From the NCBI GenBank assembly GCA_023130975.1, contig JAGMAD010000003.1, forward strand, positions 65,109-129,108: 64,000 nt of DNA, in the 5' to 3' direction. Under the pieces are notes generated by a model. It was given only the letters and a program-made list of their open reading frames with translations. It ran no database searches and was not told where the DNA came from. Below, piece by piece: positions 2,323 to 57,516 of this stretch (position 1 is the stretch's first letter; the number at the start of each line of letters is the position of its first letter). This DNA comes from Candidatus Parcubacteria bacterium. Its GTDB lineage: Bacteria; Patescibacteriota; Minisyncoccia; Minisyncoccales; JAGMDC01. The position numbers were made by a program, and so were the translations under genes.

Positions 2323-4089
2323 ATGAAAAATCAGGAATTAGCCAAAATATTTTATGAGATTGCTGATTTCTTAGAAATGGAAGAAATAGCATTTAAACCG
2401 TATGCTTATCAGAAAGCAGCTATTAGTTTAGACACTCTGGAAGAAGATGCGGCTGAGATTTATAAAAAAGGGGGATTAAAGGCATTGGAAAAGATTCCTG
2501 GAGTAGGCAAGAGTATTGCTGAAAAAATTGAGGAATATCTAAAGACCGGAAAAATTAAACATTATCAAGATTTGAAAAAGAAAATGCCAGTCCAGATAGA
2601 AGAGCTAACTGCTATTGAGGGAGTTGGACCAAAAACAGTAAAAGCACTTTACAAATCTCTGAAAATAAAAAATATAGAAGATTTAGAAAAAGCAGCTCGT
2701 GTTCACAAGATTAGGGGCCTGCCCGGTTTTCAAGAAAAAACAGAAAAAAATATCTTACAAGGAATTGCTTTTTTAAAAAGAAGCAAAGGTAGATTTTTAT
2801 TGGGAGAGATTTTACCCCAAGTTAAAGAAATTTTAGGACAATTAAAAACCCTAAAAGAAGTAGAGCAAATCAGTGTGGCTGGTTCAGTCAGGCGGATGAA
2901 AGAAACAATTGGTGATGTTGATATCTTAATTGTTTCCAAAAAACCAGACAAAGTAATGGATTTTTTTGTTTCTATGCCAGGAATTATAAAAGTTTGGGCA
3001 AAAGGTCCAACTCGTTCCTCAATAAGAGTAGAACAAGGTTTTGATATTGACCTGCGAGTAGTGGCTAAAAAAAGTTATGGTTCTGCCTTACAATATTTTA
3101 CTGGTTCCAAAGAACACAATATTGCCACTCGGCGTCTTGCTATAGAAAAGGGCTTAAAACTCAATGAATACGGGGTTTTTAAAAACAAAAAAATGATTGC
3201 TGGTTGGCGAGAGCCCGGAGTTTATCGAGCTATTGGTCTTGTTTGGATGCCGCCAGAACTAAGAGAAAATCAGGGAGAGATTGAGGCAGCTCTTCGCCAA
3301 GTTCAGGGTAAATTAAATGGTTTGCCCAAAATCATTGGTTATCAAGATATTAAAGGCGACCTTCATTGTCATTCTGATTGGGACGGCGGAAATAATTCTA
3401 TTGAAAAAATGGCAGAAGCAGCTCAACAAATGGACTATGAGTATTTGGGAATTACTGATCATACTAAGTTTTTAAGGATTGAGCAGGGATTAGATGAAAG
3501 ACAGTTGGCTCAACAGAGGAAAGAGATAGAAAAGATAAATGCCAAAATCCAAAATCCAAATTATTCCAAATCAAATCCAAAATCCAAATTTCAAATCCTT
3601 CAAGGATGCGAGGCTAATATTCTAAATGACGGTTCTATTGATATAAAAGACGAGGCATTAAAAAAACTGGATTATGCTATTGCTGGCATTCATTCCAGTT
3701 TTAAGATGCCTAAAGCAAAAATGACTGAGCGGATAATTAAGGCAATGAAAAATCCTTATATTAAAATCATTTCTCATCCAACAGGCAGAATTTTAAAAAA
3801 AAGAGATGAATATCAATGTGATTTTGAAAAGATTTTAAGAGCAGCAAAAACATTCGGAATAGTTTTAGAAATTAATTCCCAGCCCAGACGACTGGATTTA
3901 AATGACCAAAATATCAGAAGAGCAAAAGAAATGGGCATAAAAATGGTTATTAATACCGATGCTCATCATACAAGTCATTTAAGGTTTATGGATTTGGGTA
4001 TTGCCCAAGCCCGTCGGGGCTGGGCTGAAAAGAAAGATATAATAAATACACAGCCATTAGATAGATTATTAAAAAATTTTAAAAAATAA
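2323..4089 (+). CDS. polX: Family X DNA polymerase with C-terminal PHP domain
   Basis: HhH repeats (GVGKSIAEKI, GVGPKTV), pol-beta nucleotidyltransferase block GSVRR..ETIGDVDILI, and PHP motifs DLHCHSDWDGG and NTDAHH. Confidence 0.92.
   Translation: MKNQELAKIFYEIADFLEMEEIAFKPYAYQKAAISLDTLEEDAAEIYKKGGLKALEKIPGVGKSIAEKIEEYLKTGKIKHYQDLKKKMPVQIEELTAIEGVGPKTVKALYKSLKIKNIEDLEKAARVHKIRGLPGFQEKTEKNILQGIAFLKRSKGRFLLGEILPQVKEILGQLKTLKEVEQISVAGSVRRMKETIGDVDILIVSKKPDKVMDFFVSMPGIIKVWAKGPTRSSIRVEQGFDIDLRVVAKKSYGSALQYFTGSKEHNIATRRLAIEKGLKLNEYGVFKNKKMIAGWREPGVYRAIGLVWMPPELRENQGEIEAALRQVQGKLNGLPKIIGYQDIKGDLHCHSDWDGGNNSIEKMAEAAQQMDYEYLGITDHTKFLRIEQGLDERQLAQQRKEIEKINAKIQNPNYSKSNPKSKFQILQGCEANILNDGSIDIKDEALKKLDYAIAGIHSSFKMPKAKMTERIIKAMKNPYIKIISHPTGRILKKRDEYQCDFEKILRAAKTFGIVLEINSQPRRLDLNDQNIRRAKEMGIKMVINTDAHHTSHLRFMDLGIAQARRGWAEKKDIINTQPLDRLLKNFKK
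3541..3598 (+). repeat. In-frame AAATCC/CCAAA oligo-repeat in polX
   Basis: GCCAAAATCCAAAATCCAAATTATTCCAAATCAAATCCAAAATCCAAATTTCAAATCC, encoding AKIQNPNYSKSNPKSKFQI. Confidence 0.85.
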
Positions 4090-7531: not shown

Positions 7532-9181
7532 ATGGTTCGTGGAAAAATAAATAATTTAATAAAAAAAGCTATTAAAAACGCCCAAAAGGAAAAGGAATTG
7601 CCGAAGTTTAAGATTGATGAAGTTTCCATTGAACATCCGGAACAGGAAAAATATGGTGATTATTCTACCAATATTGCTATGCAGATTAGTAAAATTCTCA
7701 AGAAAGATCCAATGGAGATAGCAATAATATTAAGTGAAAAGTTAAAAATGAAAAGTGAAAAGTTTTTAGAAAAGATTGAAATAGTAGAGCCAGGATTTAT
7801 TAATTTTTTTATTTCCAAGGAATATTTACAAAAGCAAGTTTTAGATATTTTAAAAAAAGGAGAAAAATTTAGTGATTTAGACATTGGCAAAAAGAAAAAA
7901 ATTCAGATAGAATTTATTTCAGCAAATCCTACTGGTCCTTTAACTATTGGTAATGCCAGAGGGGGACCATTTGGCGATGTTTTAGGAAATATTTTTAAAA
8001 AAGCAGGATTCAAAATAGAGAAAGCGTATTATGTTAATGACTTTGGCAATCAGATTTTAGCTCTTGGCCATTCTGTTTTAAAAGATAAAGAAGCAGTTTA
8101 TAAAGGGAAATACATTGATGAACTTCATAAAAGAATACTTGCCCGCAGTAATACACGAAGTGTTTTGGGCGGGAAAGAAAAAGACCCATATAAAGCTGGG
8201 CAAAAAGCAGCAAAGATTATTATAGATGAAATAATTAAAAAGACAGTAAAGAAAATGGGAATTAAATACGATGAATGGTTTTGGGAAAGCCAGCTTCATA
8301 AAACTGGAAAAGTTGATGAAATAATAGAGTTTTTAAAAAAGAAAAAGCTAGTTTATAAAAAAGATGGAGCTTTATGGTTTAAATCATCAAAGTATGGTGA
8401 CAATAGAGACAGAGTATTAGTTAAACAAGATGGCTCAAAAACTTATTTAACTGGTGATATTGCTTATCATAGATATAAATTTGAAAAGAAAAAATTTAAT
8501 AAAGTGATAAATATTTGGGGAGCGGATCATTATGGAGATATTTCAGGATTGAAAGCTGGAACAGAAGCTCTGGGCCATAAAGATAAACTTGATATTATTC
8601 TTCATCAGTTTGTAACTATTTTAAGAAAAGGAGAAAAACAAAGGATGTCAAAAAGAAAAGGAGTTTATTTTACTATTAATGAGTTGCTTGATGAAATTAG
8701 TTCTGATGTAATGAGATTCTTTTTTCTCCAAAAATCTATAAATACACATTTGAATTTTGATATAGCATTAGCAAAAGAACAGTCAGAGAAGAATCCGGTT
8801 TATTATATTCAATACGCTTTCGCCAGAATACAGAGTATTCTGGCGAAAATCCCAAATCCCAAGTTCCAAATCCCAAATAAATCCCAAATCCCAAATCCCA
8901 AACTTGAATTATTAAAACATCCAAGTGAATTGAATTTAATTAAACAGCTTATTAAATTTCCGGAAGTTGTTGAAGATACTGCTAAAGATTATCAGGTTCA
9001 GCGATTGCCTCAATACGCTTTTGATTTAGCTGCTGCTTTTCACCAGTTCTATCGCGATTGCCGTGTTGTTTCAGAGGATGAGAATTTTAGCCAAGCTCGT
9101 TTAGCCCTGGCTTTAGCCACAAAAACTGTATTAAAAAGCGTTTTTGATTTAATGGGAATTTCTGCTCCCAAAAAAATGTAA
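7532..9181 (+). CDS. argS: Arginine--tRNA ligase
   Basis: Class I motifs (SANPTGPLTIGNARG as the HIGH region, MSKRKG) and NPVYYIQYAFARI near the C-terminus. Confidence 0.95.
   Translation: MVRGKINNLIKKAIKNAQKEKELPKFKIDEVSIEHPEQEKYGDYSTNIAMQISKILKKDPMEIAIILSEKLKMKSEKFLEKIEIVEPGFINFFISKEYLQKQVLDILKKGEKFSDLDIGKKKKIQIEFISANPTGPLTIGNARGGPFGDVLGNIFKKAGFKIEKAYYVNDFGNQILALGHSVLKDKEAVYKGKYIDELHKRILARSNTRSVLGGKEKDPYKAGQKAAKIIIDEIIKKTVKKMGIKYDEWFWESQLHKTGKVDEIIEFLKKKKLVYKKDGALWFKSSKYGDNRDRVLVKQDGSKTYLTGDIAYHRYKFEKKKFNKVINIWGADHYGDISGLKAGTEALGHKDKLDIILHQFVTILRKGEKQRMSKRKGVYFTINELLDEISSDVMRFFFLQKSINTHLNFDIALAKEQSEKNPVYYIQYAFARIQSILAKIPNPKFQIPNKSQIPNPKLELLKHPSELNLIKQLIKFPEVVEDTAKDYQVQRLPQYAFDLAAAFHQFYRDCRVVSEDENFSQARLALALATKTVLKSVFDLMGISAPKKM
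8843..8902 (+). repeat. In-frame AAATCCC oligo-repeat in argS
   Basis: GCGAAAATCCCAAATCCCAAGTTCCAAATCCCAAATAAATCCCAAATCCCAAATCCCAAAC, encoding AKIPNPKFQIPNKSQIPNPK. Confidence 0.85.
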
Positions 9182-9254: not shown

Positions 9255-12200
9255 ATGGACACAAATTTCCCTAACTTAGAAAAAAAGATTATAAAATTTT
9301 GGAAAGAGAACAGAATTTTTGAAAGATCAATTGAGCGACGCGAAAAAGCGCCTAATTTTGTTTTTTACGAAGGACCACCCTTTGCTAATGGCAAACCCGG
9401 TATTCATCATCTTTTGGCGCGGGCATTTAAGGATATGACTCTACGTTATAAAACAATGAGGGGTTATAAAGTAAAAAGGAAAGCTGGATGGGATACTCAT
9501 GGTTTACCGACTGAAATAGCCGCAGAAAAGGCATTAAAAATCAAAACGAAAAAAGACATAGAAAAAATTGGCATAGAGAAATTTATTAAGGAGTGTAGAA
9601 AAAATATCTTTACTTACAAAAAAGAATGGGAAAATTTCACTGAACGCATTGGTTTCTGGCTTGACATGGAAAATGCTTATATTACCTGTAGTAATAATTA
9701 TATTGAGTCGTTGTGGTGGATATTAAAACAGGTTTGGCAGAAAGGGCTTTTGTATCAGGATTATAAAGTGGTTCCTTATTGTCCGAGATGCGGAACATCG
9801 TTATCGTCCCACGAAGTAGCCCAGGGATACAAGAAAGTCAAAGAAAATTCAATTTATGTAAAGTTTCCTGTCAAAGGACAGAAGAATACTTATTTCTTGG
9901 TATGGACAACAACTCCTTGGACATTGCCAGGGAATGTGGCAATCGCAGTAAATTTGAAACCTACCTATGTCAAATTAAAGCTTAATAATGAATATCTGAT
10001 TTTAGCTAAACAGAGAATTAAGGATTGTGGAATAGAGGGAAAAATCACGAAAGAGTTTAAGAGAAAAGATTTGGTTGGATTGGAATATCAGCCCTTATAT
10101 AAAATTAAAATTAAGAAAGTCGGATTTCCTAAGGAAGTCCGACTTTCCGATGCTTATAAAATAATCCCTGCGGATTTTGTTTCCTTAGAAGAAGGAACAG
10201 GTTTAGTTCATATTGCACCTGCTTTTGGTGAAGATGATATGAATGTTAGTAAAGAAAATAATCTTCCTGTTTTAATAACAGTAGATGAACAAGGTAAAAT
10301 GAAAGCACCAAGTTATAAATGGAATAAGCTGTTTGTGAAAAATGCTGATCCGTTGATTATTGAAAATTTAAAAAAGAGAAAGCTGCTTTTCAAGGAAGAA
10401 TCGTATGAGCATGATTATCCTTTTTGCTGGAGATGTAAAACTCCTTTGATTTATTATGCTAAGAAGGCCTGGTTTATTGAGATGACCAAAATTAAAAAAG
10501 ATTTACTCAAAAATAACGAAAAGATAAACTGGGTTCCTAAACATTTAAAACAAGGCAGGTTCGGCGAATGGTTAAGGGAATTAAAAGATTGGGCTGTTTC
10601 CAGGGAAAGATATTGGGGCACACCCTTGCCTATCTGGAAATGTGAAAAATGCAGCCATCAGGAATTCATTGGTTCAAAAGAAGATATATTGAATCAAAAA
10701 TTTACTACTAATAAGTATTTTATTTTACGACATGGTGAATCAGAGTGTTCTAAAAAAGAAATAGGTGTTTCCAGCCCAGGAAAAGATTTATGTCCGTTGA
10801 CCAAAAAAGGAATGGCGCAAGTCCAGAAAGCCGCGCAGGAGTTAAAAAAAGAAAAAATAGATATTATTTTTTCTTCTGATTTATTGCGGACAAAACAAAC
10901 AGCGGAAATTGTTGGCAGAGCATTAGGTGTAAAAATAAAATACGACAAGCGGTTAAGGGAAATAAATTTTGGGATTTATGACAATAAATCGTTGAAACAA
11001 TGGAGGGGATTTTGGTTGGAAAGAAGCAATAGATTGAGAAAAAGACCTCCTTTAGGGGGAGAAAATTATACAAACGCAAAGAAAAGGATGTATAAATGTT
11101 TAAAAGATATTGATGAAAAATACAAAAGAAAAAAAATTTTAATAGTCAGCCATGGCGGCCCGATTTTAATGCTGTCGAGCGTAGTGAAAGGATTGTCCGA
11201 TGAAGAGATTACAAAACTCTTAAAAAGAGAACGAAAATTATTTCCAGTAGGGAAATGGCATAAAATAGATTTCAGGATTCTGCCTTACAATAAGCAGGGA
11301 GAATTGGATTTCCATAAGCCATATATTGATGAAGTAAAATTTAAATGTTCCAAGTGTGATAATTCAATGAAGCGAGTTTCAGAAGTGATTGATTGCTGGT
11401 TTGATTCTGGCGCAATGCCGTTTGCCCAATATCATTACCCTTTTGAAAACAAGAATCTAATTAACCCTTCGACAAGCTCAGGGCAAGTAAATCAATTTCC
11501 AGCAGATTTTATTTGCGAAGGAGTAGACCAAACTAGAGGTTGGTTTTACACTTTACTGGCTATTTCTACTTTGCTGGATTTGAGTCCGTCTTATAAAAAT
11601 GTCATTTCTTTGGGTCATGTTTTGGACGAAAAAGGGGAGAAAATGTCTAAATCAAAAGGAAATGTAGTTGATCCCTGGTATGTTATTGAAAAATATAGTT
11701 CAGATGCTGCTCGTTGGTATTTTTACACTATAAATCAGCCAGGTGATTCAAAACTTTTTACAGAGAAAGATGTAGATAATGCATTAAAGAAGTTTATTTT
11801 AACTTTTTGGAATATACATACTTTTTTTGAAACTTATGTTCCCAAAAAAGAATCTTTCAAATTTCAAGTTTTAAGTTCTAAGAATTTATTAGATAGATGG
11901 ATAATTTCTAAATTAAACAACTTGATTTTAGGAGTTTCTAAGAAATTGGATAATTATGATATTACTTCAGCTGCCAGAGATATAGAAGATTTTGTTATTA
12001 ATGATTTATCTCTATGGTATGTGAGGAGGTCCAGAAAAAGGTTTCAGAACCCTAAAACAAAAAAAGATTTTCAAGAAGCATCTGAGACCCTAAATTTTAT
12101 TTTATTAACTTTGAGTAAAGTAACAGCACCGTTTATTCCTTTTTTGAGTGAGGAAATATATCAAAAAGTCAAAAGTCAAAAGTTAAAAGTTAACAGTCAA

Positions 12201-12749
12201 AAGTCAACACATTTAGAGAAATGGCCAGAAGCAAATGAAAAATTAATAAATAAAAAGTTAGAAAAGAAAATGGAAATAGTTCGGGAGATTGTGGCACAAG
12301 GATTATCCCAAAGAGCAAAAGCAGGAATAAAAGTCCGCCAACCATTAAATAATTTTCAATTTTCAATTTTCAATTTTCAATTAGAAAAAGAATTATTAGA
12401 TTTGGTTAAAGAAGAGGTGAACGTAAAAGAAATTAGTTTTGGCAAGGAAACAAAGTTAGATACTAAAATTACGCCAAAGTTAAGGGAAGAAGGAATAGTC
12501 AGAGAAATTATTCGCAATACTCAAGAAATGCGTAAAAAAGCTGGTTATAAGCCAAAAGACAAAGTTTTAATCAGGTATACTGGAGATAAAGGGCTGAAGA
12601 AAATTTTAGAAAGAAATAAAAAGACAATTTTAAAAGAGATTGTAGTTAAAGACCTTTTAGAGGGTGATAGGCCGAAAAGAGTTTTTGATATTGAAAAAAC
12701 CTTTAAAATAGAAAACCAAGAACTCTGGTTGGGAATTAGAAAAATTTAA
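9255..12749 (+). CDS. ileS: Isoleucine--tRNA ligase (type 2) with embedded histidine-phosphatase domain
   Basis: PFANGKPGIHH (HIGH), KMSKSKGN, WTTTPWTLPGN, and zinc knuckles CPRCGT and CWRCKT. It is 1164 aa because of a 196-aa insert plus several short inserts. Confidence 0.95.
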   Translation: MDTNFPNLEKKIIKFWKENRIFERSIERREKAPNFVFYEGPPFANGKPGIHHLLARAFKDMTLRYKTMRGYKVKRKAGWDTHGLPTEIAAEKALKIKTKKDIEKIGIEKFIKECRKNIFTYKKEWENFTERIGFWLDMENAYITCSNNYIESLWWILKQVWQKGLLYQDYKVVPYCPRCGTSLSSHEVAQGYKKVKENSIYVKFPVKGQKNTYFLVWTTTPWTLPGNVAIAVNLKPTYVKLKLNNEYLILAKQRIKDCGIEGKITKEFKRKDLVGLEYQPLYKIKIKKVGFPKEVRLSDAYKIIPADFVSLEEGTGLVHIAPAFGEDDMNVSKENNLPVLITVDEQGKMKAPSYKWNKLFVKNADPLIIENLKKRKLLFKEESYEHDYPFCWRCKTPLIYYAKKAWFIEMTKIKKDLLKNNEKINWVPKHLKQGRFGEWLRELKDWAVSRERYWGTPLPIWKCEKCSHQEFIGSKEDILNQKFTTNKYFILRHGESECSKKEIGVSSPGKDLCPLTKKGMAQVQKAAQELKKEKIDIIFSSDLLRTKQTAEIVGRALGVKIKYDKRLREINFGIYDNKSLKQWRGFWLERSNRLRKRPPLGGENYTNAKKRMYKCLKDIDEKYKRKKILIVSHGGPILMLSSVVKGLSDEEITKLLKRERKLFPVGKWHKIDFRILPYNKQGELDFHKPYIDEVKFKCSKCDNSMKRVSEVIDCWFDSGAMPFAQYHYPFENKNLINPSTSSGQVNQFPADFICEGVDQTRGWFYTLLAISTLLDLSPSYKNVISLGHVLDEKGEKMSKSKGNVVDPWYVIEKYSSDAARWYFYTINQPGDSKLFTEKDVDNALKKFILTFWNIHTFFETYVPKKESFKFQVLSSKNLLDRWIISKLNNLILGVSKKLDNYDITSAARDIEDFVINDLSLWYVRRSRKRFQNPKTKKDFQEASETLNFILLTLSKVTAPFIPFLSEEIYQKVKSQKLKVNSQKSTHLEKWPEANEKLINKKLEKKMEIVREIVAQGLSQRAKAGIKVRQPLNNFQFSIFNFQLEKELLDLVKEEVNVKEISFGKETKLDTKITPKLREEGIVREIIRNTQEMRKKAGYKPKDKVLIRYTGDKGLKKILERNKKTILKEIVVKDLLEGDRPKRVFDIEKTFKIENQELWLGIRKI
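10115..10147. repeat. GAAGTCGGAYTTCC hairpin family, copy in ileS (in frame)
   Basis: GAAAGTCGGATTTCC-TAA-GGAAGTCCGACTTTC, encoding KVGFPKEVRLS. Confidence 0.85.
10713..11300 (+). other. Histidine phosphatase (PGAM-like, branch 1) domain inserted inside IleRS
   Basis: The insert contains LRHGES, SSDLLRTKQTA, REINFG and VSHGGPI in canonical order. It sits between IleRS blocks PIWKCEKC..FIGSKEDI and DFHKPYIDE..VIDCWFDSG. Confidence 0.85.
12164..12208 (+). repeat. In-frame AAAGTCA oligo-repeat in ileS
   Basis: AAAAGTCAAAAGTCAAAAGTTAAAAGTTAACAGTCAAAAGTCAAC, encoding KVKSQKLKVNSQKST. Confidence 0.8.
12351..12382 (+). repeat. In-frame (TTTTCAA)x4 repeat in ileS
   Basis: AATTTTCAATTTTCAATTTTCAATTTTCAATT, encoding NFQFSIFNFQL. 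The same heptamer occurs in the 39490-39535 intergenic region. Confidence 0.85.
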
Positions 12750-12754
12750 TTAAA

Positions 12755-13498
12755 ATGGCTATTCATTATAGGACAAAAGGTTTTTTTCTGAAAGAGGTTG
12801 ATAGGAGAGAATCAGATAAATTATTTGTAGTTTATACAAAGGATTTTGGGAAGTTGAAGATTTTAGGAAAAGCAATTAGAAAGATTAGATCAAAGCTAAG
12901 AAGTGGAGCAAGGGAGCTTTGTCTATCAGAAATTGAATTTATTCAAGGAAAAACTTATAAGACCTTGACTGATACTATTTTGATTGATAGCTTTCCAGAT
13001 ATAAGAAAAGATTTAGCAATTACAGAAACTGCTTTTCAAATTAATGATGCCTTGGATAGATTGGTCAAGGACGAAGAGAAAGACGATCAAATCTGGGAAT
13101 TATTAAATGAAACATTTGAAAAATTAAATAATTGTCAATTGTTAATAGTCAACAGTCAATTGTTATACCACTATTTTCTTTGGAATCTTTTTTCTTTTTT
13201 GGGCTACCAGCCAGAGCTTTATAAATGTTCATCTTGTGAAAAAGAATTAAAACCATTTCAATTATATTTCAGTCCAGAGCAAGGGGGAGTCGTTTGTAAT
13301 GTTTGCGCTCAGAGAATTAAAAAAGAGGATTCTTTGGAGAAATTAATAGAGATAAAGCCAGATGTTGTAAAAATTTTACGGCTTTTTCTTCAGAAAGATT
13401 GGTCTGTTTTATCAAAATTAAAAGTTGAAGAAAAAGATAAAGAGTTATTAGAAACAATTTCTGAAGATTATCTTTCTTTTGTTTTGGAAAATTCCTAG
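12755..13498 (+). CDS. recO: DNA repair protein RecO
   Basis: OB-fold-like N-terminus (GFFLKEVDRRESDKLFVVYTKDFGK) and a C4 zinc motif (CSSC..CNVC). Confidence 0.85.
   Translation: MAIHYRTKGFFLKEVDRRESDKLFVVYTKDFGKLKILGKAIRKIRSKLRSGARELCLSEIEFIQGKTYKTLTDTILIDSFPDIRKDLAITETAFQINDALDRLVKDEEKDDQIWELLNETFEKLNNCQLLIVNSQLLYHYFLWNLFSFLGYQPELYKCSSCEKELKPFQLYFSPEQGGVVCNVCAQRIKKEDSLEKLIEIKPDVVKILRLFLQKDWSVLSKLKVEEKDKELLETISEDYLSFVLENS
13131..13166 (+). repeat. In-frame GTCAAT/GTCAAC oligo-repeat in recO
   Basis: ATTGTCAATTGTTAATAGTCAACAGTCAATTGTTAT, encoding NCQLLIVNSQLL. Confidence 0.75.
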
Positions 13499-13518: not shown

Positions 13519-15204
13519 ATGAGAAACAAATTGATATTATTTTTAATATTTTTGAGTGTTCTTATAGGAATAACTGGTTTTTGGTATTACCAAAAAAATA
13601 TTTATTCAAAAGAAATTATAAAGTTAGAAATATTAGGCCCGGAACGAGTGGAAGCAGGTGAGGAAGTTGAATATATTGTTAAGTATAAAAATAATGGTGA
13701 TACCAGAGTGGAAGAGCCAAAACTGATTTTTGAATATCCAGAACATTCAATAACTGAAGATGGTTATTTAAGAGATGAGGTCGGACCTGAAAAGCTTGGT
13801 GAAGCAATTTATCCTGGCGAGGAGAAAACATTTCAATTTAAAGCCCGGCTGTTAGGAAAAGAAAAAGAAAATAAACAAGCTAAAGCAGTGTTAACCTATC
13901 GGCCTAAAAATTTAGAATCGCGGTATGAATCAAAAACCACCTTTACTTCTATTATTGAAAAGGTCCCTTTGACTTTTGAGTTTGATTTTCCTTCAAAAAT
14001 TGAATCAGACAAAGAAATAAAATTTCGGCTTAATTACTTTTCCTATATTGATTATCCACTTGCTGATTTAGGAATAAAAATTGAATATCCTTTTAACTTT
14101 GAATTTAAAAAATCTTCCCCTTCTGCTTTAGAAAATACCGAATGGTCAATTAATCTCTTAGATAAATCAGATGGAGGAAGGATTGAAATTACTGGCAAGG
14201 TTTCCGGTGATGTTGGAGAAAAGAAAATTTTTGAAGCCAGGATAGGTGTTTGGCAAAAAGGAGAATTTGTTTTATTAAAAGAAGCGTCTAAGGGCATAGA
14301 AATTATTGAACCATCTCTCTATATTTCTCAGCAGATTAATGGAAATCCTCAATATGTCGCTAATGCCGGCGACCTACTTCATTATGATGTTTTCTTTAAA
14401 AATATCGGAGAAAAGGCCTTAACCAATCTTTCTTTAGTAACAAAGTTAGAAGGGAAAATTTTTGACCTTGAGACCATAAAAACATTTGATGGTAATTTCG
14501 GGCCCGGAGACAATTCAATTATTTTTGACTGGAAAAAAGTTCCCAAGCTCCAGTTTTTAGATTCTCAAGAAGAGGGCAGAGTTGAGTTCTGGATAAATTT
14601 AAAAGACGACTGGCAAATGGATAATTTAGAAGATAAAAATCTGACAATAAAAAATAAAATTTATTTGTCTCAACAAGCCCGGGAAGAATTTATAACTAAA
14701 GTGAATTCAAAGTTAGTTGTTGAACAAAAAGGATATTTTCAAGACGAGGTCTTCGGCAATTCCGGACCAATTCCGCCAGAAGTTGGTAAAACTACCACTT
14801 ATACTATAATCTGGCAGATTCAGAATTATTACAATGATATCAAGAATGTAAGAGTGAAGGCAATTTTGCCTTCTAGAGTAAATTTAACTGGTAAAATTTT
14901 TCCAGAAGAGCAAAATGAAAAATTTGCTTTTGATTCCAGCTCCAGAGAAATTGTTTGGAGCATAGAAGCTTTACCCCCCACCACTTTTGCTACCAAAAGT
15001 GGTGGGGGGTCAACAATTGCTTTTCAGATTGCTTTTATGCCAAGTATTCATCAAACAGGACAAACTCCAGAAATTATTGGGGAGGTATCTATCTTTGCTG
15101 AAGATACCTGGACAGAAGAATTATTAGAGAGCAGTGATGAAAACATAGATACAACCCTGCCTGATGATGAAACTGTCATTGAACAACAGGGTATTATACA
15201 GTAA
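13519..15204 (+). CDS. Membrane-anchored surface protein with CARDB/DUF11-like beta repeats
   Basis: N-terminal TM helix followed by repeated modules (VEYIVKYKNNGDT, LHYDVFFKNIGEKAL, TYTIIWQIQN). The domain call is approximate. Confidence 0.7.
   Translation: MRNKLILFLIFLSVLIGITGFWYYQKNIYSKEIIKLEILGPERVEAGEEVEYIVKYKNNGDTRVEEPKLIFEYPEHSITEDGYLRDEVGPEKLGEAIYPGEEKTFQFKARLLGKEKENKQAKAVLTYRPKNLESRYESKTTFTSIIEKVPLTFEFDFPSKIESDKEIKFRLNYFSYIDYPLADLGIKIEYPFNFEFKKSSPSALENTEWSINLLDKSDGGRIEITGKVSGDVGEKKIFEARIGVWQKGEFVLLKEASKGIEIIEPSLYISQQINGNPQYVANAGDLLHYDVFFKNIGEKALTNLSLVTKLEGKIFDLETIKTFDGNFGPGDNSIIFDWKKVPKLQFLDSQEEGRVEFWINLKDDWQMDNLEDKNLTIKNKIYLSQQAREEFITKVNSKLVVEQKGYFQDEVFGNSGPIPPEVGKTTTYTIIWQIQNYYNDIKNVRVKAILPSRVNLTGKIFPEEQNEKFAFDSSSREIVWSIEALPPTTFATKSGGGSTIAFQIAFMPSIHQTGQTPEIIGEVSIFAEDTWTEELLESSDENIDTTLPDDETVIEQQGIIQ
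14974..15009. repeat. Perfect 15-bp-arm palindrome in frame in the 561-aa surface protein gene
   Basis: CCCCCCACCACTTTT-GCTACC-AAAAGTGGTGGGGGG, encoding PPTTFATKSGGG. Confidence 0.85.
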
Positions 15205-15419: not shown

Positions 15420-18400
15420 ATGGAACAAGAATATATTTCTCTTAAAAAAACAGAGGAGATTTTGACGAAAAAGAAAAAACCTTATTCAAGGGCTTATTTG
15501 AGTTTGCTTGCCCGACAGGGAAAGTTAAAAGCAGTGAAGATTGGAGTAGAGTGGATGACAACTAAAAATTGGCTTAACCAATTTTTGGGAAATCGAAAGA
15601 AGTCAAAGCGTTTAAAGTGGCAGTTTAAACATTCAGAGGTGATTTTGCCGTTGTATTTTGGTTATGGGTTGAAAATTGCTTTGGTAAAGCTTTCAAATGA
15701 TACTTTAAATCTAACATCCAAGGTTTTCAAAAAGCATTGGCAGGAGGCAGTGGCGTTGGTTTTACTGGTGGTAATGGTGAGTTCTGGATTTTGGTTCTAT
15801 CCTACAAGAACGGTTCTCGGTGCAACTTATTATTTTGTCCAGACAGACTGGTCTGGCGGTTTAGATGGAGAAACTTATCCAGTACATCCGACTAACAAAA
15901 CTAATTGGACAAAATACAACGCCAAAGATTCTGAAACTATTGCCAGTACCGAACTTGCTTTAACCACCACTTCTGACTCCTGGACCCAGACCAGCAGCGC
16001 TGATTTTAACGCCGGGACACCGAATAGTGTTTCCATAAATGAAGGGGATGTAATCTTGGCAGCAGAGTCTTTTTCTTGGTCTGCCAAATCTGCCTGGGAT
16101 ACCCCTGATATCGGAGAATATTCTGTCCCAGCCTTTGCTGATTTAGATAATGATGGTGATTATGATTTGTTGATCGGGGAGAAGAATGGAATAAATTATG
16201 GTTATGAAAACACTGGTTCAATTACCAGCCCAACCTGGTCTGCCAAATCTGCCTGGGATGTTTCTGATGATGAAGTAAATGTCGCCCCAGCCTTTGCTGA
16301 TTTAGATAATGATAGCGACTATGATTTGTTAATTGGGGAGTATTATGGAGTAAGTTATGGTTATGAAAACACTGGTTCAATCACCAGCCCAACCTGGTCT
16401 GCCAAATCTGCCTGGGATACTCCTGATGTCGGAACTTGGAGTAGGCCAGTCTTTGCTGATTTAGATAATGATAGCGACTATGATTTGTTAATTGGGGAGT
16501 ATTATGGAGTAAGTTTTGGGTATGAAAACACTGGTTCAATTACCAGCCCAACCTGGTCTGCCAAATCTGCCTGGGATACCCCTGATATCGGAGAATATTC
16601 TGTCCCATCCTTTGCTGATTTAGATAATGATGGTGATTATGATTTGTTGATCGGGGAGTATTATGGAGTAAGTTTTGGTTATGAAAACACTGGTTCAATT
16701 ACCAGCCCAACCTGGTCTGCTAAATCTGCCTGGGATACTCCTGATATTGGGAGCAGTGCCGCCCCAGCCTTTGCTGATTTAGATAATGATGGCGACTATG
16801 ATTTGTTGATTGGGGAGGCTGGTGGAGTAAGTTTTGGGTATGAAAATGCGATTACTTATTATTCTCCCGGCGATCTTATTTCCTCCTCCCAGGACCTTGG
16901 CCAGCAATCTAATTTCACTACAATTCAATGGACTGAAAATCTACCTTCAAACACTGATTTGAAATTCCAAATAGCTACTAATAATGATAATGCAACATGG
17001 AATTTTATTGGCCCTGGTGGAACTGACGCTACTTATTACACTACTGCTTCAGGAGAGAACATCCATTCTTCTCATAATGAAGACCAATATGTGAAATACA
17101 AAGCATATTTATCTACTTCTGATACTTCAGTCACGCCGACTTTATCGGATATTACTATTAACTACGAATATTATCCTAGTTCAGCTAGTTTAACTTCTTC
17201 TCCTTACGATACCTCTGATGCAGCTAATGCTTTGAGTGATATTCAATGGACAGAGAGTTTAGCCAGTAATACAAACATCAAGTTTCAAATGAGAACTGCT
17301 CCAGATAGTTCTGGTTCTCCTGATTGGGCAAATGGTTCTGGCTGGTGCGGACCATCAACCTGCGCTGCCACTAAAGCTGATGATGATTATGCCTCTGATT
17401 ATTACGAGACAACTTCTGCTGGAGAGACCGCTAATTCTGTTCATTCCACTGGCGAGAACGATCAATGGTTTCAATACAAGGTCTGGCTGGTAACCACTGA
17501 TAACGTGTCTTTTCCAACTCTATCAGATGTTACTCTAACCTATGTGGTTAACGCGCCGCCGGAATTTAATCCTGATTATCCGAGCCCCAGCGCAGGAGGT
17601 GTTTCAGCTGTTCAAAATTCAGACGGAACAGTAACCATTAATTATTCTATTAGAGACCCGGATACTACTTCAGGTTCATCAACTCCTGGCTATATTACTC
17701 CTTCGTTTGAATACTGGAATGATTCTTCATGGGTAAGTTGCACCACAATGGCTTCAGGAGATACTGATAACAAAGCAGTTGAAGAAGTAAATTATATTGC
17801 TTATTCAGCTACCTGGTATGCTAAGACAGATTTTAATAGCCAATATATGAATAATACAGCTAAGATTAAGATAACCATTAATGACAATGAAGCAGCTAAT
17901 AACACTGCCAATCAAGAATCAGCCACCTTTACTTTAGATACAAAAGACCCTGTGCCAGGCACGCCTTCAATTTCAGTAGATCCCTCTCAAAGTCCTGCTG
18001 CCTTAACCATTTCTTGCTCAGATGATTTGCAATCTACTTTACAGATGAAAATAGGTTTGGCTTCAGATTTAAGTGATGCCACTTATGAAGATTATTCCAC
18101 TTCTTCGACCATATCTTTAGTAACCGACCCAGATACTGTTTATATCCAATTCAAAGACGAAAAAGGAAATACCTCTTCTATCGTCTCTGCGACCACCCCA
18201 GAAACGCCAAGCAGTATGATAATTAGAGATGTAACAAATTTAGATACAAGCGATTTTCAATTATTTATTGCTTGGAAAGTCATCGAGGTTCCAAGTCCTG
18301 GTTTTCAACAATATATCATTTTTCGTTCTACTGATGGGACTAATTATGCTCAATTAACCACCATTGATAATCGGCTATTGAATTATTATATGGATACGAG

Positions 18401-34622: not shown

Positions 34623-34633
34623 TTTTGATTATT

Positions 34634-36055
34634 ATGAAAAAATCTTTCTTTATTTCTACGGCTATTGATTATCCTACCGAACAGGGGCATCTTGGCCATG
34701 CTTTAGAAAAAGTGCAAGCAGATGTTATTGCGAGATATAAAAGACTTCAAGGTATTGATGTCCATTTTAGCGCAGGAACAGACGAGCATGGGCTTAAAAT
34801 TCAAAGACGTGCTCAAAAAGCAGACAAAAAACCGCAAGAATTTGTGGATGAAATGAGTAAATATTTTAAAAATCTATGGAAAATATTAAACATCTCAAAT
34901 AATGATTTTATTAGGACTACCGAGAAAAGACATATAAAAGTTGTTCAAGAAATTATTAAGAAAATTTACAAGAAAGGTGATATTTATAAAGGAAAATATA
35001 AAGGATTATATTGTGTAGATTGCGAGAGTTATTATTTACCAAAAGATTTAGAAAATGGAAAATGTCCAATTCACAAGAAACCAGTAGAGTTGATAGAAGA
35101 AGAGACATATTTTTTTAGAATGAGTAAATACCAAAAACAACTTCAAGATTATATTAAAAAAAATAAAAATTTTATTATTCCTGTAGGTAAAAGAAACGAA
35201 ATCTTAAACCGGCTAAAAGAGCCCTTACAGGATTTAAGTATTTCTAGAAAAACAGTTCTATGGGGAATTCCATTACCTTTTGATAAAAAACTTTCTCTTT
35301 TTGTTTGGGTAGATGCTTTATGTAATTATCTAACTACGATTGGTTATCCCAATAATAAATCTAAAAAATTTTGGCCTGCTGATGTCCATATTATAGGAAA
35401 AGATATCGTTTGGCATCACACCGTAATTTGGAGCAGTTTATTATCGTCTTTAAAATTGCCTTTGCCAAAAACTATATTTGTTCACGGTTTTATCACATCT
35501 GGCGGTCAAAAAATGTCAAAAAGTTTGGGCAATGTGGTTGACCCATTTGTGTTAGTTGAAAAATACGGGACTGATGCTGTTAGGTATTTTCTTTTGCGAG
35601 AAATTCCGCCAACTGAAGATGGTGACTTTACCTATCAGAAGTTTGAGCAAAGATACAACTCAGACCTTGCGGCTGGAATTGGTAATTTGGTGGCAAGAGT
35701 AATAACGCTTGCGAAAAATTCCAAATTCCAAATTCCAAATTCCAAACAAATTCCAAATTCAAAATTCCAAACAGCAGTAAATAAAACATGGGGAAATTAT
35801 GAAAAAGCGTTGGACAATTTTAAATTTAACGAAGCCCTGAGAGAAATTTGGAAATTAATTAGCTTTTGCGACCGCTATATTGAAAAAGAGAGACCTTGGG
35901 AAAAGTCCAAGCATCAAGAACAAACAATCAAGAATCTATTATTTGCCTTAAGAAATATAGCTGAAATGTTAGAGCCGTTTTTGCCAGAAACATCAGAGAA
36001 TATATTAAAACAGATTAAAACAAAAAAAAGCAAACCACTTTTCCCTAGAATTTAA
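34634..36055 (+). CDS. metG: Methionine--tRNA ligase (short form)
   Basis: AIDYPTEQGHLGH (HIGH region), KMSKSLGN, and zinc knuckle CVDCESYY..CPIHKK. The ORF also opens at TTG 34625. Confidence 0.93.
   Translation: MKKSFFISTAIDYPTEQGHLGHALEKVQADVIARYKRLQGIDVHFSAGTDEHGLKIQRRAQKADKKPQEFVDEMSKYFKNLWKILNISNNDFIRTTEKRHIKVVQEIIKKIYKKGDIYKGKYKGLYCVDCESYYLPKDLENGKCPIHKKPVELIEEETYFFRMSKYQKQLQDYIKKNKNFIIPVGKRNEILNRLKEPLQDLSISRKTVLWGIPLPFDKKLSLFVWVDALCNYLTTIGYPNNKSKKFWPADVHIIGKDIVWHHTVIWSSLLSSLKLPLPKTIFVHGFITSGGQKMSKSLGNVVDPFVLVEKYGTDAVRYFLLREIPPTEDGDFTYQKFEQRYNSDLAAGIGNLVARVITLAKNSKFQIPNSKQIPNSKFQTAVNKTWGNYEKALDNFKFNEALREIWKLISFCDRYIEKERPWEKSKHQEQTIKNLLFALRNIAEMLEPFLPETSENILKQIKTKKSKPLFPRI
35711..35772 (+). 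repeat. In-frame AAATTCC oligo-repeat in metG
   Basis: GCGAAAAATTCCAAATTCCAAATTCCAAATTCCAAACAAATTCCAAATTCAAAATTCCAAAC, encoding AKNSKFQIPNSKQIPNSKFQ. Confidence 0.85.
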
Positions 36056-36058: not shown

Positions 36059-36904
36059 ATGTTGTTTGATACTCACGCTCATCTTAATTTTGCTGTTTTT
36101 GACAAGGATAGGAAAGAAATGATTAAAAAATGCTTGGAAAATAATGTTTGGATGATAAATATAGGAACAAATTATGAGACCTCAAAAAAAGCAGTTGAAA
36201 TTGCGGGAAAATATAATGAAGGGGTTTATGCGGCAATTGGACTTCATCCCATAAATTTAGAGACAAATCTGATGAAACAAAAGTTTGATGAGAATGAAGG
36301 CGGCCGGTTTGAAAAAGAATTTAATTATGGAAAGTACAAAAAGCTTGCCTTAAGTTCTAAAAAGATTGTTGCTATTGGTGAAATCGGCTTGGATTATTGG
36401 CGAAAACCCAAGACAAAGAAAAAACTAGCAGAATTTAAAAATAAACAAAAAAATTTACTTTTACAAGAAATTAAATTAGCGCAGGAATTAGAATTGCCCA
36501 TAATCTTTCACTGCCGAATGGCTCACGACGACCTGATAAAAATATTACAATACAAAGAAGTCGGACTTCCTAAAGGAAGTCCGACTTCTAAAAAAGCCGT
36601 AATTCATTGCTTTACTGGAACTTGGGAGCAGTCAGAAAAATTTTTAGAAATGGGATTTTATTTGGGTTTTAATGGGATTGTTTTTAAATTAGACCTTGAT
36701 GAAATAATTAAGAAAACACCCCTGAATAGGATTTTAATAGAAACAGATTGCCCTTTTTTAACTCCCCCAAATTTCAATGAAGAAAAAAATAATCCTTTAG
36801 GTGTAAAATTCGTTGCTGAACATATTGCTAAAATTAGAAATCTCCCTCTTGAAAAAATAGCTGAAATTACCAGCACAAACGCTAAAACACTTTTTAAGAT
36901 TTAA
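36059..36904 (+). CDS. tatD: TatD family metal-dependent hydrolase
   Basis: MLFDTHAHLNF, GEIGLDY, IFHCR, HCFTG and ETDCPFL blocks. Confidence 0.9.
   Translation: MLFDTHAHLNFAVFDKDRKEMIKKCLENNVWMINIGTNYETSKKAVEIAGKYNEGVYAAIGLHPINLETNLMKQKFDENEGGRFEKEFNYGKYKKLALSSKKIVAIGEIGLDYWRKPKTKKKLAEFKNKQKNLLLQEIKLAQELELPIIFHCRMAHDDLIKILQYKEVGLPKGSPTSKKAVIHCFTGTWEQSEKFLEMGFYLGFNGIVFKLDLDEIIKKTPLNRILIETDCPFLTPPNFNEEKNNPLGVKFVAEHIAKIRNLPLEKIAEITSTNAKTLFKI
36556..36589. repeat. GAAGTCGGAYTTCC hairpin family, copy in tatD (in frame)
   Basis: AGAAGTCGGACTTCC-TAAA-GGAAGTCCGACTTCT with perfect 15-bp arms, encoding EVGLPKGSPTS. Confidence 0.9.
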
Positions 36905-39484: not shown

Positions 39485-39621
39485 GATAAAAAACTATCGT
39501 TAAAATTTTCAATTTTCATTAAATTTTCAATGAATCAATTTTCAATTAAGAATTAGAAATTTAATAGAAATTAGAAATTAAAAATTAGAAATTTGAGCGA
39601 AGCCCGTTAGGGCAAGCGAAC
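39485..39621. repeat. Intergenic composite upstream of glmS: TTTTCAA repeats, then TTAGAAA repeats, then a GAGCGAAGC..GGCAAGCGAAC module
   Basis: TTTTCAA occurs about four times, then AATTAGAAAT about four times, then GAGCGAAGCCCGTTAGGGCAAGCGAAC ending 4 nt before the ATG. A similar order (TTTTGCA repeats, then GACCGAGCGAAGCGAGGGAACG) occurs at 4100-4165 upstream of the Nudix gene. Confidence 0.75.
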
Positions 39622-57501: not shown

Positions 57502-57516
57502 AGATTTTAATTAAGT

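Follow-up and report, generated by a model that had tools for sequence, protein, structure and literature searches.

Translated heptanucleotide arrays in polX, argS and metG of a Candidatus Parcubacteria bacterium and their relation to a composite CCAAAT-type repeat arm

Introduction

The over-representation of heptamer repeats in bacteria has been known for years. Among the described systems, the closest in kind to the tracts analysed here are the STRR-type heptamer repeats of heterocystous cyanobacteria (PMC2670836), which share with them 7-nt tandem units at many dispersed loci and form hairpins between genes, as do the intergenic arrays of the window. The GGGNATC repeats of Xanthomonas and Nostoc (PMC4692102) resemble ours in consisting of a G-tract plus 4 nt (GGGATTT complements AAATCCC) and in being dispersed, mostly intergenic, near ORF ends and scarce between divergent genes. 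The TAACTGA repeats of Beggiatoaceae, Cyanobacteria and Bacteroidetes (PMC4679880) are likewise directly repeated heptamers, and their occurrence in different phyla is patchy, which suggests horizontal spread without an evident mechanism; they contain stops in all forward frames and so are essentially kept out of ORFs, where a few copies lie at tolerated positions. REP/REPIN sequences, which are very small dispersed repeats (PMC3116915), share with our repeats a length below 100 nt, multiple copies, non-coding status and proximity to gene 3' ends, and they form hairpins, as many pan-bacterial copies of the composite element also do. Two further systems resemble ours in lying within ORFs, namely the contingency-locus SSRs of Haemophilus influenzae (PMC2651432), whose in-ORF unit is not divisible by 3, and the Borg tandem repeats (PMC9879509), which are recently formed, rapidly evolving nucleotide repeats that add low-complexity, probably disordered segments to proteins.

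The repeats analysed here differ from each of these systems. In contrast to STRR, they occur in Parcubacteria at ~33% GC, their main units are AAATYCC and not canonical STRR units, and the arrays sit in essential protein genes, where they are translated in frame; we found no STRR description of a fixed cross-phylum order of variant units like that of the CCAAAT arm. Compared with the GGGNATC repeats, they show neither a four-unit preference nor canonical G4, the metG and polX units mostly having GG only. Unlike TAACTGA, the CCAAAT units are stop-free in both orientations and lie inside core domains of housekeeping proteins. The differences from REP/REPIN are that there is no linked RAYT or transposase among 476 neighbouring ORFs, that the arms do not co-vary, and that many phyla are involved instead of one genus. 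Borg repeats inside ORFs reportedly have unit lengths divisible by 3, whereas here a 7-nt unit is read in all three frames by turns and the tracts are degenerate, old and length-stable. Contingency loci, finally, differ from our essential housekeeping hosts with degenerate units and orthologue-conserved length; we found no length polymorphism in unit steps for the argS tract among four assemblies.

We analysed a stretch of 64,000 nt (hereafter the window) of Candidatus Parcubacteria bacterium (GCA_023130975.1, contig JAGMAD010000003.1, positions 65,109 to 129,108, forward strand). The host, a tiny, groundwater-type bacterium, has a Parcubacteria genome with a GC content of ~33%. A sequence-only reading of the window had described CCAAAT-type repeats in polX, argS and metG as a single family with a shared left junction, and had suggested a common insertion or expansion mechanism.

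Results

Three CCAAAT-type tracts are translated in frame

The three host genes lie on the + strand: polX (2323–4089) encodes a family X DNA polymerase with a PHP domain (588 aa; Pfam HHH_8, DNA_pol_B_thumb and PHP; homologues), argS (7532–9181) an arginine--tRNA ligase (549 aa; Pfam Arg_tRNA_synt_N, tRNA-synt_1d and DALR_1), of which an identical protein is on record as arginine--tRNA ligase of Candidatus Parcubacteria bacterium, and metG (34625–36055) a methionine--tRNA ligase (476 aa; Pfam tRNA-synt_1g and Anticodon_1; homologues). All three tracts that the sequence-only reading had located are present, and they are in frame, since their offsets from the ORF starts at 2323, 7532 and 34625 are divisible by 3. 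GCCAAAA lies at 3541, GCGAAAA at 8843 and GCGAAAAA at 35711, and each of these is followed, as that reading had it, by 55–60 nt of AAATCC/AAATCCC/AAATTCC-type units; the tracts encode AKIQNPNYSKSNPKSKFQIL, AKIPNPKFQIPNKSQIPNPK and AKNSKFQIPNSKQIPNSKFQ, respectively, which agrees with the PN(P/S)K(F)QI-type low-complexity translation proposed for them.

The argS tract (8846–8902, + strand) consists of AAAATCCC AAATCCC AAGTTCC AAATCCC, then AAAT, then AAATCCC AAATCCC AAATCCC AAAC, and encodes IPNPKFQIPNKSQIPNPK (ArgRS aa 439–457). The metG tract (35714–35772, + strand) consists of AAAAATTCC AAATTCC AAATTCC AAATTCC, then AAAC, then AAATTCC AAATTC AAAATTCC AAAC, and encodes NSKFQIPNSKQIPNSKFQ (MetRS aa ~364–382). 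The heptamer-like tract of polX (3544–3598, + strand) is irregular, reading AAAATCC AAAATCC AAATTATTCC AAATC AAATCC AAAATCC AAATTTC AAATCC, and encodes IQNPNYSKSNPKSKFQI between the polymerase and PHP parts. TRF assigned period 7 to all three, with 7.3–8.4 copies and 77–84% matches; lag-7 identity was 0.72–0.75 in the argS and metG tracts and 0.58 in the polX tract. The pattern CCAAATYCCAAA, with at most 1 mismatch, had 15 matches, all inside the three tracts, compared with 3.2 ± 1.8 in shuffles. The argS gene including its tract was recovered with 100% DNA identity on 3 further contigs (ENA and Logan assemblies, at least 3 samples), and for PolX, 3 contigs are on record with the identical protein.

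Period-7 tracts are in excess throughout the window

The three tracts are not a set apart: in all, the window has 15 period-7 tracts, which are composed of a wide variety of units, where Markov-2 simulations gave an expectation of 0.1. Other periods from 4 to 13 were represented by 0–2 tracts each, and period 14, a multiple of 7, by 5. The relatives L002, L003, L005 and L006 show the same period-7 excess. Eleven of the 15 tracts fall inside ORFs (7 ORFs). Those of other units comprise a second argS tract (7731–7765, + strand; AAGTGAA-type, LSEKLKMKSEKF), which is another lineage-variable hot spot; three ileS tracts on the + strand at 11852–11884, 12158–12210 (AAAAGTC) and 12344–12389 (AATTTTC), the second being a +7-aa insertion relative to relatives; a recO tract (13129–13160, + strand; AATTGTC); two tracts in the ORF of a TPP-dependent enzyme (+ strand; 42656–42694, TATCTAA-type, and 43183–43221, AAACATC); and a pth tract (57236–57278, − strand; TCTTGTC on the + strand, AGAGACA-type on the sense strand). 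At the site of the first ileS tract, the Wolfebacteria IleRS L103 has a CCAAAT-type array. Stop-codon avoidance was rejected as a sufficient reason for the units of the three tracts being alike, as ~49% of composition-weighted heptamers are stop-free.

The intergenic tracts of the window are two-arm hairpins: (AATTTTC)n with (AGAAATT)n upstream of glmS (39504–39593; 28-nt arms, 79% complementary), a repeat-built hairpin downstream of glmS (41453–41524; 28-nt arms, 82% complementary), and (AAAGCGA)n with (CGCTTTT)-type units in the gap that separates pth from the next gene (57511–57634). In polX, argS and metG, by comparison, the tract is a single arm within the ORF, with no convincing reverse-complement partner arm 3' of any of them; the sole inverted match pairs 35736–35759 with 35845–35868 (75% complementary), in conserved MetRS coding sequence.

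The tracts occupy variable loops and are kept by orthologues

The argS and metG inserts had been placed in a variable linker of the anticodon-binding helices, and alignments and AF2 models bear this out: the linkers are hypervariable and lineage-specific. In the models, the ArgRS tract forms loop 439–463 between helices 422–438 and 464–474 (pLDDT block means 56–72), the 3FNR alignment giving a net gain of ~6 aa at the loop, and the MetRS tract forms loop 365–378 between helices 337–364 and 379–397, with low pLDDT. The left junction GC(C/G)AAAA is indeed common to all three genes, but it is conserved host coding sequence, with the motifs ILAK/ILRK in ArgRS, TLAK in MetRS and N-x-K/R in PolX. 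The ArgRS and MetRS sites are homologous (hhalign probability 91.9%), and since their junction is where a helix shared by these paralogous class I domains ends, it is neither an element end nor a target site. On the right-hand side, the last AAAC of the argS tract overlaps conserved host Lys-Leu codons, and the conserved flank K-F-Q-I-L of polX is encoded by AAATTTC AAATCCT.

A reading of the tracts as recent insertions does not hold, as orthologues at 70–83% protein identity keep their length and register. This applies to the argS orthologue L006 and to the metG orthologues L254, L255 and L256, which also keep the architecture, with the variant units AATGACC in L254 and AAGCCAC in L256. Because orthologues down to ~70% identity retain length and register, the tracts are old and stable. 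Tract identity between orthologues is 0.75–0.91, against a family baseline of ~0.70; we dropped this conservation as a sign of constraint, because any two family members are ~70% identical. Closer relatives carry different sequences at the ArgRS site, namely AATTATC units in L002 (81%) and a GC-rich nested hairpin in L003 (77%), so turnover does occur there, and given this turnover independent gains at the site may have taken place. GC-rich mini-hairpins nested in the heptamer tracts of relatives recall the SDRs of Elhai, which were reportedly described in 2008 as nested in heptamer repeats. Relatives have wholly different peptides or short linkers at the ArgRS, MetRS and PolX sites, and many of them show either no insert or a +7-aa state at the polX site.

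The argS and metG tracts match a composite arm found across phyla

One architecture, 4 units + AAAY + 3 units + AAAC, is common to the tracts of argS and metG and to the orthologous tract of L006. Their similarity peaks lie at lags 25 and 32; the polX tract peaks at lag 28, not at 25 or 32. An arm profile matched argS at 8840–8908 (E = 3.8e-10, 36.2 bits), metG at 35710–35771 (E = 6.8e-10, 35.4 bits) and polX weakly (10.3 bits, E = 0.048), matches that are partly by construction, as the profile was built from sequences picked with a pattern already holding AAATYCC-AAAC. The proposal of one repeat family in three genes thus stands for argS and metG, which match one arm, and not for polX, with its weak match and other internal periodicity. 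Unit-order permutations scored at least as high as the real sequence in 3/500 cases for argS and 0/500 for metG, in a test that handles composition and unit content and only partly controls the bias from the selecting motif. Perfect arrays reached only 20–29 bits on the arm profile, and 10 of the 120 loci in a set selected with (AAATYCC)3 scored at least 35 bits.

The composite consensus is approximately AAATTCC AAATyC CAAGCACC AAATyCC AAAC AAATTCC AATGACC AAAATTCC AAAC, that is, ~4 units of which the last but one is an AAG variant, AAAY, ~3 units and AAAC, and the argS and metG tracts both follow this order. The composite pattern was found, with a conserved arm, at 120 or more metagenome loci, whose GC ranges between 0.29 and 0.70, and also in genomes from many phyla, with the same architecture and variant units in unrelated phyla. 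AAGCACC and AATGACC, 2–3 substitutions off the main units, show ~280-fold and 55-fold enrichment with arrays in several phyla, and CAAGCACCAAAT is ~280-fold enriched within 70 nt of arrays. AATGACC, which occurs in the composite element and in L254 but is absent from the tracts of the window, corresponds by reverse complementation to a rotated TTGGTCA, which we take to be STRR2. A downstream reverse-complement arm pairs with the motif in 72 of 119 composite copies, and there are several contigs with 2 copies. Of the pan-bacterial element, 83% is intergenic, mostly adjoining 3' ends of genes, with 3 of 69 in divergent promoter regions compared with a background of 16%.

In-frame sense arrays were found elsewhere in SecA, TrmD (two lineages), IleRS, MetH (twice), PriA, UvrA, a P-type ATPase and a GT4 glycosyltransferase; arrays in ORFs are in sense orientation in ~29/39 cases. 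ORF calls in high-GC contigs, made by a simple caller, are unreliable. Isolate genomes hold arrays too, including a complete Flavobacterium chromosome. In other MAGs, several arrays lie at contig ends, and some form hairpins followed by T-runs. Among the 476 ORFs neighbouring 152 loci, there was no recurrent protein family and no linked transposase, and carriage by phages or plasmids was rejected, the composite lying on only 4 viral contigs and plasmid matches being weak and partial. No description of the CCAAAT arm family was found in the literature on heptanucleotide repeats in Patescibacteria/CPR, on the unit sequences or on the encoded peptides, and the repeat family of argS and metG is apparently previously undescribed.

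Discussion

With moderate confidence, we interpret the tracts as translated heptamer arrays, those of argS and metG being old inherited copies of one composite arm and that of polX a local expansion, probably seeded by host K-F-Q-I-L codons that resemble two units. The lineage has a genome-wide excess of heptanucleotide tandem arrays, which between genes take the form of paired hairpin-forming arms; within genes they would persist only as single arms in sense orientation, confined to surface loops tolerating any hydrophilic peptide. The arms of argS and metG would be vertically inherited, old copies of a conserved composite repeat widespread in bacteria. They share a structural place, the loop that follows helix 1 of the class I anticodon-binding domain, where they replace the natural ~12-residue linker and are read as a disordered IPNPKFQ-type peptide. 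The analysis demonstrates the excess of period 7, the match to the family, the placement in loops, the conservation among orthologues and the host origin of the junction. Each arm may have entered its loop once, in ancient times, as a pre-formed array that was copied or inserted and not grown unit by unit through slippage; as we recovered neither empty sites nor target-site duplications nor a mobilising gene, insertion of a pre-formed arm is what we infer. Since then the tracts would have been carried along as near-neutral passengers, tolerated only where the net length is divisible by 3 and the sense reading is hydrophilic and free of stops.

A broader proposal, which we regard as possible though doubtful, is that a hitherto undescribed CCAAAT arm of ~60–70 nt whose heptamer words follow a fixed order either is horizontally transferred among more than 10 bacterial phyla (29% to 70% GC) without a linked transposase, or is the array-type site of a near-universal single-strand nucleic-acid-binding protein, and that it lodges in frame in essential genes of gene-dense CPR genomes, to be carried for long as a translated loop.

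Independent in-situ replication slippage in each permissive loop, with the likeness across genes and phyla being convergent, appears unlikely to us. Lys (AAA) codons would seed A-rich heptamers, the frame would allow only ±21-nt or 3-nt changes, and loss of one codon from a 9-unit array would yield a 4-nt partial unit, so that 7 − 3 = 4 accounts for the partial units. The arrays of many unrelated units at many genome sites agree with this, as do the other units that relatives hold at the same sites, the +7-aa (21-nt) changes in PolX and IleRS, the merging of the polX tract into unit-like host K-F-Q-I-L codons, and the lack of a mobilising gene among the 476 neighbouring ORFs and of a target duplication. 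However, permuted unit orders seldom match the real score, the variant units AAGCACC and AATGACC accompany arrays in several phyla, with variants also in MetRS orthologues, and AT-rich arrays in genomes of 60–70% GC are hard to obtain from local sequence. The preference of the sequence-only reading for a common mechanism over independent slippage survives in part: simple slippage does not predict the higher-order architecture of argS and metG, and the reading needs revision as regards polX and the host-encoded junction.

Quite unlikely, in our judgement, is that the tracts are nucleic-acid elements selected at the DNA or mRNA level that modulate transcription or translation of the host genes. 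They could act as C-rich, G-poor CCAAAU sites with 7-nt spacing for a protein that binds single strands, for example a cold-shock protein (Y-box CCAAT/ATTGG) or Rho (rut-like), or else as an i-motif or a G-quadruplex-forming stretch of the template strand. Such a role would fit the conservation of the arm sequence across GC 0.29 to 0.70, the position of the element next to gene 3' ends and its avoidance of divergent promoter regions, the hairpins followed by T-runs in some arrays, and the exactly kept length of orthologous tracts; binding of one cold-shock protein per heptamer has been discussed (MacGregor 2015, PMC4679880), and GGGNATC heptamer arrays form G4 (Rehm 2015, PMC4692102). A strand-specific RNA role is, however, opposed by the orientation of single arms relative to the adjacent upstream gene (27:27), and structural selection on hairpins was rejected, arms within an element being no more complementary to each other (0.713) than to the arms of other elements (0.697; p = 0.24). 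Close relatives swap the tract for unrelated units and retain the gene. No G4 motif (at least four G3 tracts, loops of at most 7 nt) occurs in the window, including both strands of the three tracts, and there is no four-unit preference, with exact runs falling monotonically (75, 41, 8 and 4 for 3, 4, 5 and 6 units). Rfam gave no match to a known RNA family: 10 loci searched at the gathering threshold yielded one unrelated tRNA match only, and 12 loci searched in permissive mode yielded sub-threshold miRNA-like hairpins only.

We consider it improbable that the encoded P/N/K/Q-rich flexible loop is itself selected as a protein feature, for tRNA binding or for partner or host interaction in episymbiotic bacteria, with the DNA periodicity being merely how the loop arose. 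In class I enzymes, the anticodon-binding-domain loop lies close to the tRNA-binding place, and Lys-rich loops could contact RNA; the preference for sense orientation in ORFs and the conserved loop length among orthologues would also fit. Against this, the same peptides occur in the unrelated SecA, TrmD, MetH, PriA, UvrA and glycosyltransferase, these sites hold wholly different peptides, or short linkers, in relatives, pLDDT is low, and the sense bias is explained equally well by the hydrophobic antisense reading GIWDLGF. An assembly or binning artefact, with low-complexity repeats misjoined into genes, is effectively refuted: although metagenome assemblies are often broken or mis-joined at repeats and several arrays sit at contig ends in other MAGs, the cross-assembly comparison, which covers argS alone, found identical DNA in four assemblies, which come from two pipelines and at least 3 samples. 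Moreover, no reading frame is disrupted, orthologues sequenced in other studies carry tracts at this site too, and isolate genomes contain arrays as well.

A composite family that is defined by sequence and trackable across phyla makes the choice between spread and convergence testable. Heptamer repeats are not restricted to intergenic DNA: in the reduced, gene-dense Patescibacteria, they are heritable, translated parts of essential enzymes, among them aminoacyl-tRNA synthetases, SecA, TrmD and PolX. For CPR annotation and phylogenomics this is a warning, as low-complexity loops of marker proteins stem from nucleotide repeats, and such repeat-derived loops recur at homologous sites of paralogues; both alignments and claims of "lineage-specific insertions" can be misled by them. 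If the family is mobile or protein-bound, it would represent a new kind of very small genetic element.

Three in-frame tracts within a period-7 excess

The three tracts of this Candidatus Parcubacteria bacterium (CPR/Patescibacteria) start on the forward strand at GCCAAAA (3541) in polX, which encodes a PolX with a PHP domain (ORF 2323-4089), at GCGAAAA (8843) in argS (ArgRS, ORF 7532-9181) and at GCGAAAAA (35711) in metG (MetRS, ORF 34625-36055), where the sequence-only reading had placed them, and the AAATCC/AAATCCC/AAATTCC-type units after each start extend over 55-60 nt. Since their offsets from the ORF starts are divisible by 3, the tracts are translated, as that reading had held (predicted peptides AKIQNPNYSKSNPKSKFQIL, AKIPNPKFQIPNKSQIPNPK and AKNSKFQIPNSKQIPNSKFQ for polX, argS and metG, respectively). 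Window matches to CCAAATYCCAAA with at most 1 mismatch number 15, none of them outside the three tracts (3.2 ± 1.8 in shuffles). In a cross-assembly DNA comparison limited to argS, the gene including its tract, whose possible absence from independent assemblies had been raised earlier, was present and 100% identical on three further contigs (at least 3 samples, two assembly pipelines), with no tract length polymorphism among the compared contigs.

The tracts are part of a genome-wide heptamer phenomenon. Among short periods, 7 alone is over-represented in the window, apart from its multiple 14 (5 tracts): we identified 15 period-7 tracts, whereas the remaining periods between 4 and 13 have 0-2 each; Markov-2 simulations (n = 50) yielded 0.1 period-7 tracts on average (maximum 1). 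The excess is likewise seen in syntenic loci of relatives with 91%, 81%, 77% and 73% ArgRS identity, and the window units are varied (AAGTGAA, AAAAGTC, AATTTTC, AATTGTC, AAACATC, TATCTAA and AGAGACA). Eleven tracts are intragenic, spread over seven ORFs, and include a second argS tract; ileS has three, the gene for a TPP-dependent enzyme has two, and recO and pth have one each. Intergenic tracts (39504-39593, 41453-41524 and 57511-57634) are two-arm hairpins.

Perfect hairpins of ~32 nt (GAAGTCGGAyTTCC-TAAr-GGAAGTCCGACTTC; 15-bp stem; −23 to −27 kcal/mol) form another family in the window, at 10115-10147 (ileS), 36556-36589 (ORF 36059-36904) and 43794-43826 (intergenic); the motif also matches 42821-42838, within ORF 42082-43785. 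The intragenic copies are in frame, and the one in ileS adds 11 residues compared to the 77% relative (locus L003). Two GC-rich perfect intragenic hairpins, 1275-1318 (ORF 847-1641) and 14973-15010 (ORF 13519-15204), with stems of 17-19 bp (−39 and −33 kcal/mol), translate to RDPTSGLQSRGRG and LPPTTFATKSGGG; in a genome of 33% GC, they resemble additional mini-elements that are read in frame. Residues 489-654 encoded by ileS (9255-12749) are a complete His_Phos_1 (histidine-phosphatase) domain inserted inside the IleRS catalytic domain, an arrangement that relatives (L003) and an IleRS from Wolfebacteria (L103) share. A 159-nt tandem repeat at 16077-16846 (4.8 copies, 86% matches; ORF 15420-20846, 1808 residues), apparently an ordinary repeat at the protein level, has a consensus coding for DNDGDYDLLIGEYYG-like segments.

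Host loops and the shared junction

Among 120 ArgRS homologues, the tract site is flanked by conserved QYAxARIxSIL(A/R)K before and LxLLxHPSEL after, with linkers of 16-44 residues; lag 7 is the most frequent linker periodicity (42/120), with many differing heptad peptides, and just 10 of the 120 linkers are of the CCAAAT type. Compared to the solved Campylobacter enzyme (3FNR), the window ArgRS shows a net gain of ~6 residues at the tract, which, judging from the alignments, took over a natural ~12-residue linker and is not a 20-residue insertion. In the ArgRS AlphaFold model (mean pLDDT 87.6), the tract lies in a low-confidence loop (439-463) flanked by helices 422-438 and 464-474. The MetRS site resembles that of ArgRS, with a loop (365-378) flanked by helices 337-364 and 379-397 in a model that is poor overall but has a well-predicted C-terminal domain. 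Alignments and predicted loops thus agree with the earlier placement of both tracts in variable linkers. At the PolX site, many relatives are without an insert, and relatives are mostly in a seven-residue periodic state (e.g., SKFQIQN-SKFRILQ).

When the ArgRS and MetRS families were aligned profile to profile (probability 91.9%, E = 6.9 × 10−7), YAFARIQSILAK fell opposite LVARVITLAK, which indicates that the starting points of the two tracts are homologous, in class I domains that are paralogous. The Ala-Lys junction, previously attributed to the inserts, is indeed present at all sites, but the alignments identify it as the conserved helix end preceding the tract, that is, host sequence and not repeat-borne; homologous helix ends would account for the shared GCGAAA without an element end. 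In metG, 35845-35868 (GAAATTTGGAAATTAATT), which encodes the conserved MetRS E-I-W-K-L-I, is 75% complementary to tract part 35736-35759; pairing in the mRNA is conceivable, and the complementarity is probably due to chance.

A pan-bacterial family of CCAAAT arrays

The argS and metG tracts parse alike (4 units, a 4-nt partial, AAAT or AAAC, 3 units and AAAC) and are most self-similar at lags 25 and 32, as is the orthologous ArgRS tract of the 73% relative (L006), whereas the polX tract departs from this architecture (lag 28). The common mechanism proposed earlier for all three tracts is partly supported, by the architecture of argS and metG; the different polX tract and the host-encoded junction do not add support. 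The shared architecture suggests that a pre-formed arm, an ordered array of CCAAAT-type units, was inserted or copied; independent slippage remains a rival explanation.

In one genome per species, (AAATYCC)3 had at least 120 matches (chance estimate ~2-6), those listed falling in Acidobacteriota, Bacteroidota (cultured Flavobacterium and Salinimicrobium among them), Planctomycetota, Chloroflexota, Cyanobacteria (with Oscillatoria PCC 10802), Omnitrophota, Verrucomicrobiota, Desulfobacterota, Campylobacterota and others, with 12 in Patescibacteria; many host genomes are at 60-70% GC. Around the arrays among these listed matches, units-AAAC-units recurs (AAAC in 11/17 four-nt interruptions), variant units are the same as in the shared architecture, and CAAGCACCAAAT and CCAATGACC are enriched ~280-fold and ~55-fold, respectively, within 70 nt.

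The 19-mer CAAGCACCAAATYCCAAAC had at least 120 metagenome contig matches (GC 0.29 to 0.70), in a conserved arm, (T)AAATTCC AAATyC CAAGCACC AAATyCC AAAC AAATTCC AATGACC AAAATTCC AAAC, after which the composite usually continues with a loop and then an arm in reverse complement; in 72 of 119 listed cases the motif paired with the downstream arm in the minimum-energy fold (median span ~170 nt). Among the matches listed, 156/189 arm matches lay outside ORFs, 69 classifiable elements lay between tandem (50), convergent (16) or divergent (3) genes (background share of divergent gaps, 16%), and single arms pointed equally often either way with respect to the upstream gene (27:27). Arms were not significantly more complementary within an element than to arms of other elements (0.713 vs. 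0.697, p = 0.24), so the arm seems to be the basic unit. No recurrent protein family was found among 476 neighbouring ORFs, an Rfam search of element loci matched no family, and composites on viral contigs were rare (4 loci). A nucleic-acid function of the tracts, involving Csp, Rho or non-B DNA, remains a further rival. Two-arm elements at metagenome loci such as L127, L129, L138 and L140 often have GC-rich stem-loops of species-specific sequence on both flanks (CCCGCATCAC...GTGATGCGGG on either side in L140) and sometimes contain an inner terminator-like hairpin, the nested palindromes reaching ~190 nt.

An arm profile (88 positions, from 116 arms picked by a motif already including AAATYCC-AAAC) matched argS at 8840-8908 (E = 3.8 × 10−10, 36.2 bits), metG at 35710-35771 (E = 6.8 × 10−10, 35.4 bits) and polX at 3535-3609 (E = 0.048, 10.3 bits). 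Equal-length perfect arrays scored 20.0 and 28.6 bits, and among 120 listed loci picked by (AAATYCC)3 alone, 16 reached at least 30 bits and 10 at least 35 bits. Permutation of unit order gave 19.5 ± 5.8 for argS (real score 36.8, reached in 3/500), 17.9 ± 4.6 for metG (35.4, 0/500) and 3.1 ± 1.9 for polX (9.9, 0/500).

Sense-strand CCAAAT arrays also occur in genes for SecA (L063, Nealsonbacteria), P-type ATPase (L084, Woesebacteria), IleRS (L103, Wolfebacteria), MetH (L113, Aequorivita; L082, an epsilonproteobacterium), PriA (L064, Planctomycetota), UvrA (L061), a GT4 glycosyltransferase (L087) and TrmD (L036:712-1488, Saccharibacteria; L057:4675-5376, Parcubacteria). The two TrmD arrays, each from a MAG, share a site after EPI(F/L)(K/R)AV and make a second case in which arrays of different lineages recur at a single permissive site. 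Among the matches listed, ~29/39 arrays in ORFs are sense, a bias that fits the hydrophilic KSQIPNP/KFQIPNS reading vs. the hydrophobic antisense GIWDLGF; a protein-level role of the tracts likewise remains a rival.

Age and turnover

The 81-nt L006 linker has the length and register of the window linker with diverged units, and its two 25-mers are identical to one another. The metG architecture is kept in MetRS orthologues at 83%, 80% and 70% identity, with variant units (AATGACC in L254, AAGCCAC in L256). Orthologue tract vs. gene-average identities (0.81/0.83, 0.80/0.82, 0.91/0.76 and 0.75/0.70; mostly gap-free) are no proof of constraint, given the family baseline of ~0.70. The argS tract has AAATCCG units interrupted by a 37-nt GC-rich nested insert in the 91% relative (L005), AATTATC units in L002 and a nested GC-rich hairpin in L003, so that turnover occurs alongside retention. 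GC-rich hairpin-like inserts (~26-37 nt) are nested in relatives' tracts at argS site 2 (L005:4546-4656 and L003) and site 1 (L006), adding peptides such as RSGLPEGLHPKSE. Elhai reportedly described, in 2008, Nostoc small dispersed repeats nested in heptamer repeats, which these argS inserts recall.

Interpretation

In the best-supported account, the tracts of argS and metG are old and belong, as single arms, to the pan-bacterial family of CCAAAT composites, occupying a homologous loop of two paralogous enzymes; the polX tract is probably a local expansion of host codons AAATTTC AAATCCT (K-F-Q-I-L). Bacteria are known to have an excess of heptamer SSRs (Mrazek 2007, as cited in PMC4692102), and the described GGGNATC (PMC4692102) and TAACTGA (PMC4679880) arrays are mostly intergenic; our literature search found no account of Patescibacteria heptamer repeats, the CCAAAT composite or the encoded peptides. 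On the same account, heptamer arrays would be generated or acquired at a high rate in this lineage, as in cyanobacteria and a number of further groups, and in its gene-dense genome arrays would last only where harmless, as intergenic hairpins or in permissive surface loops.
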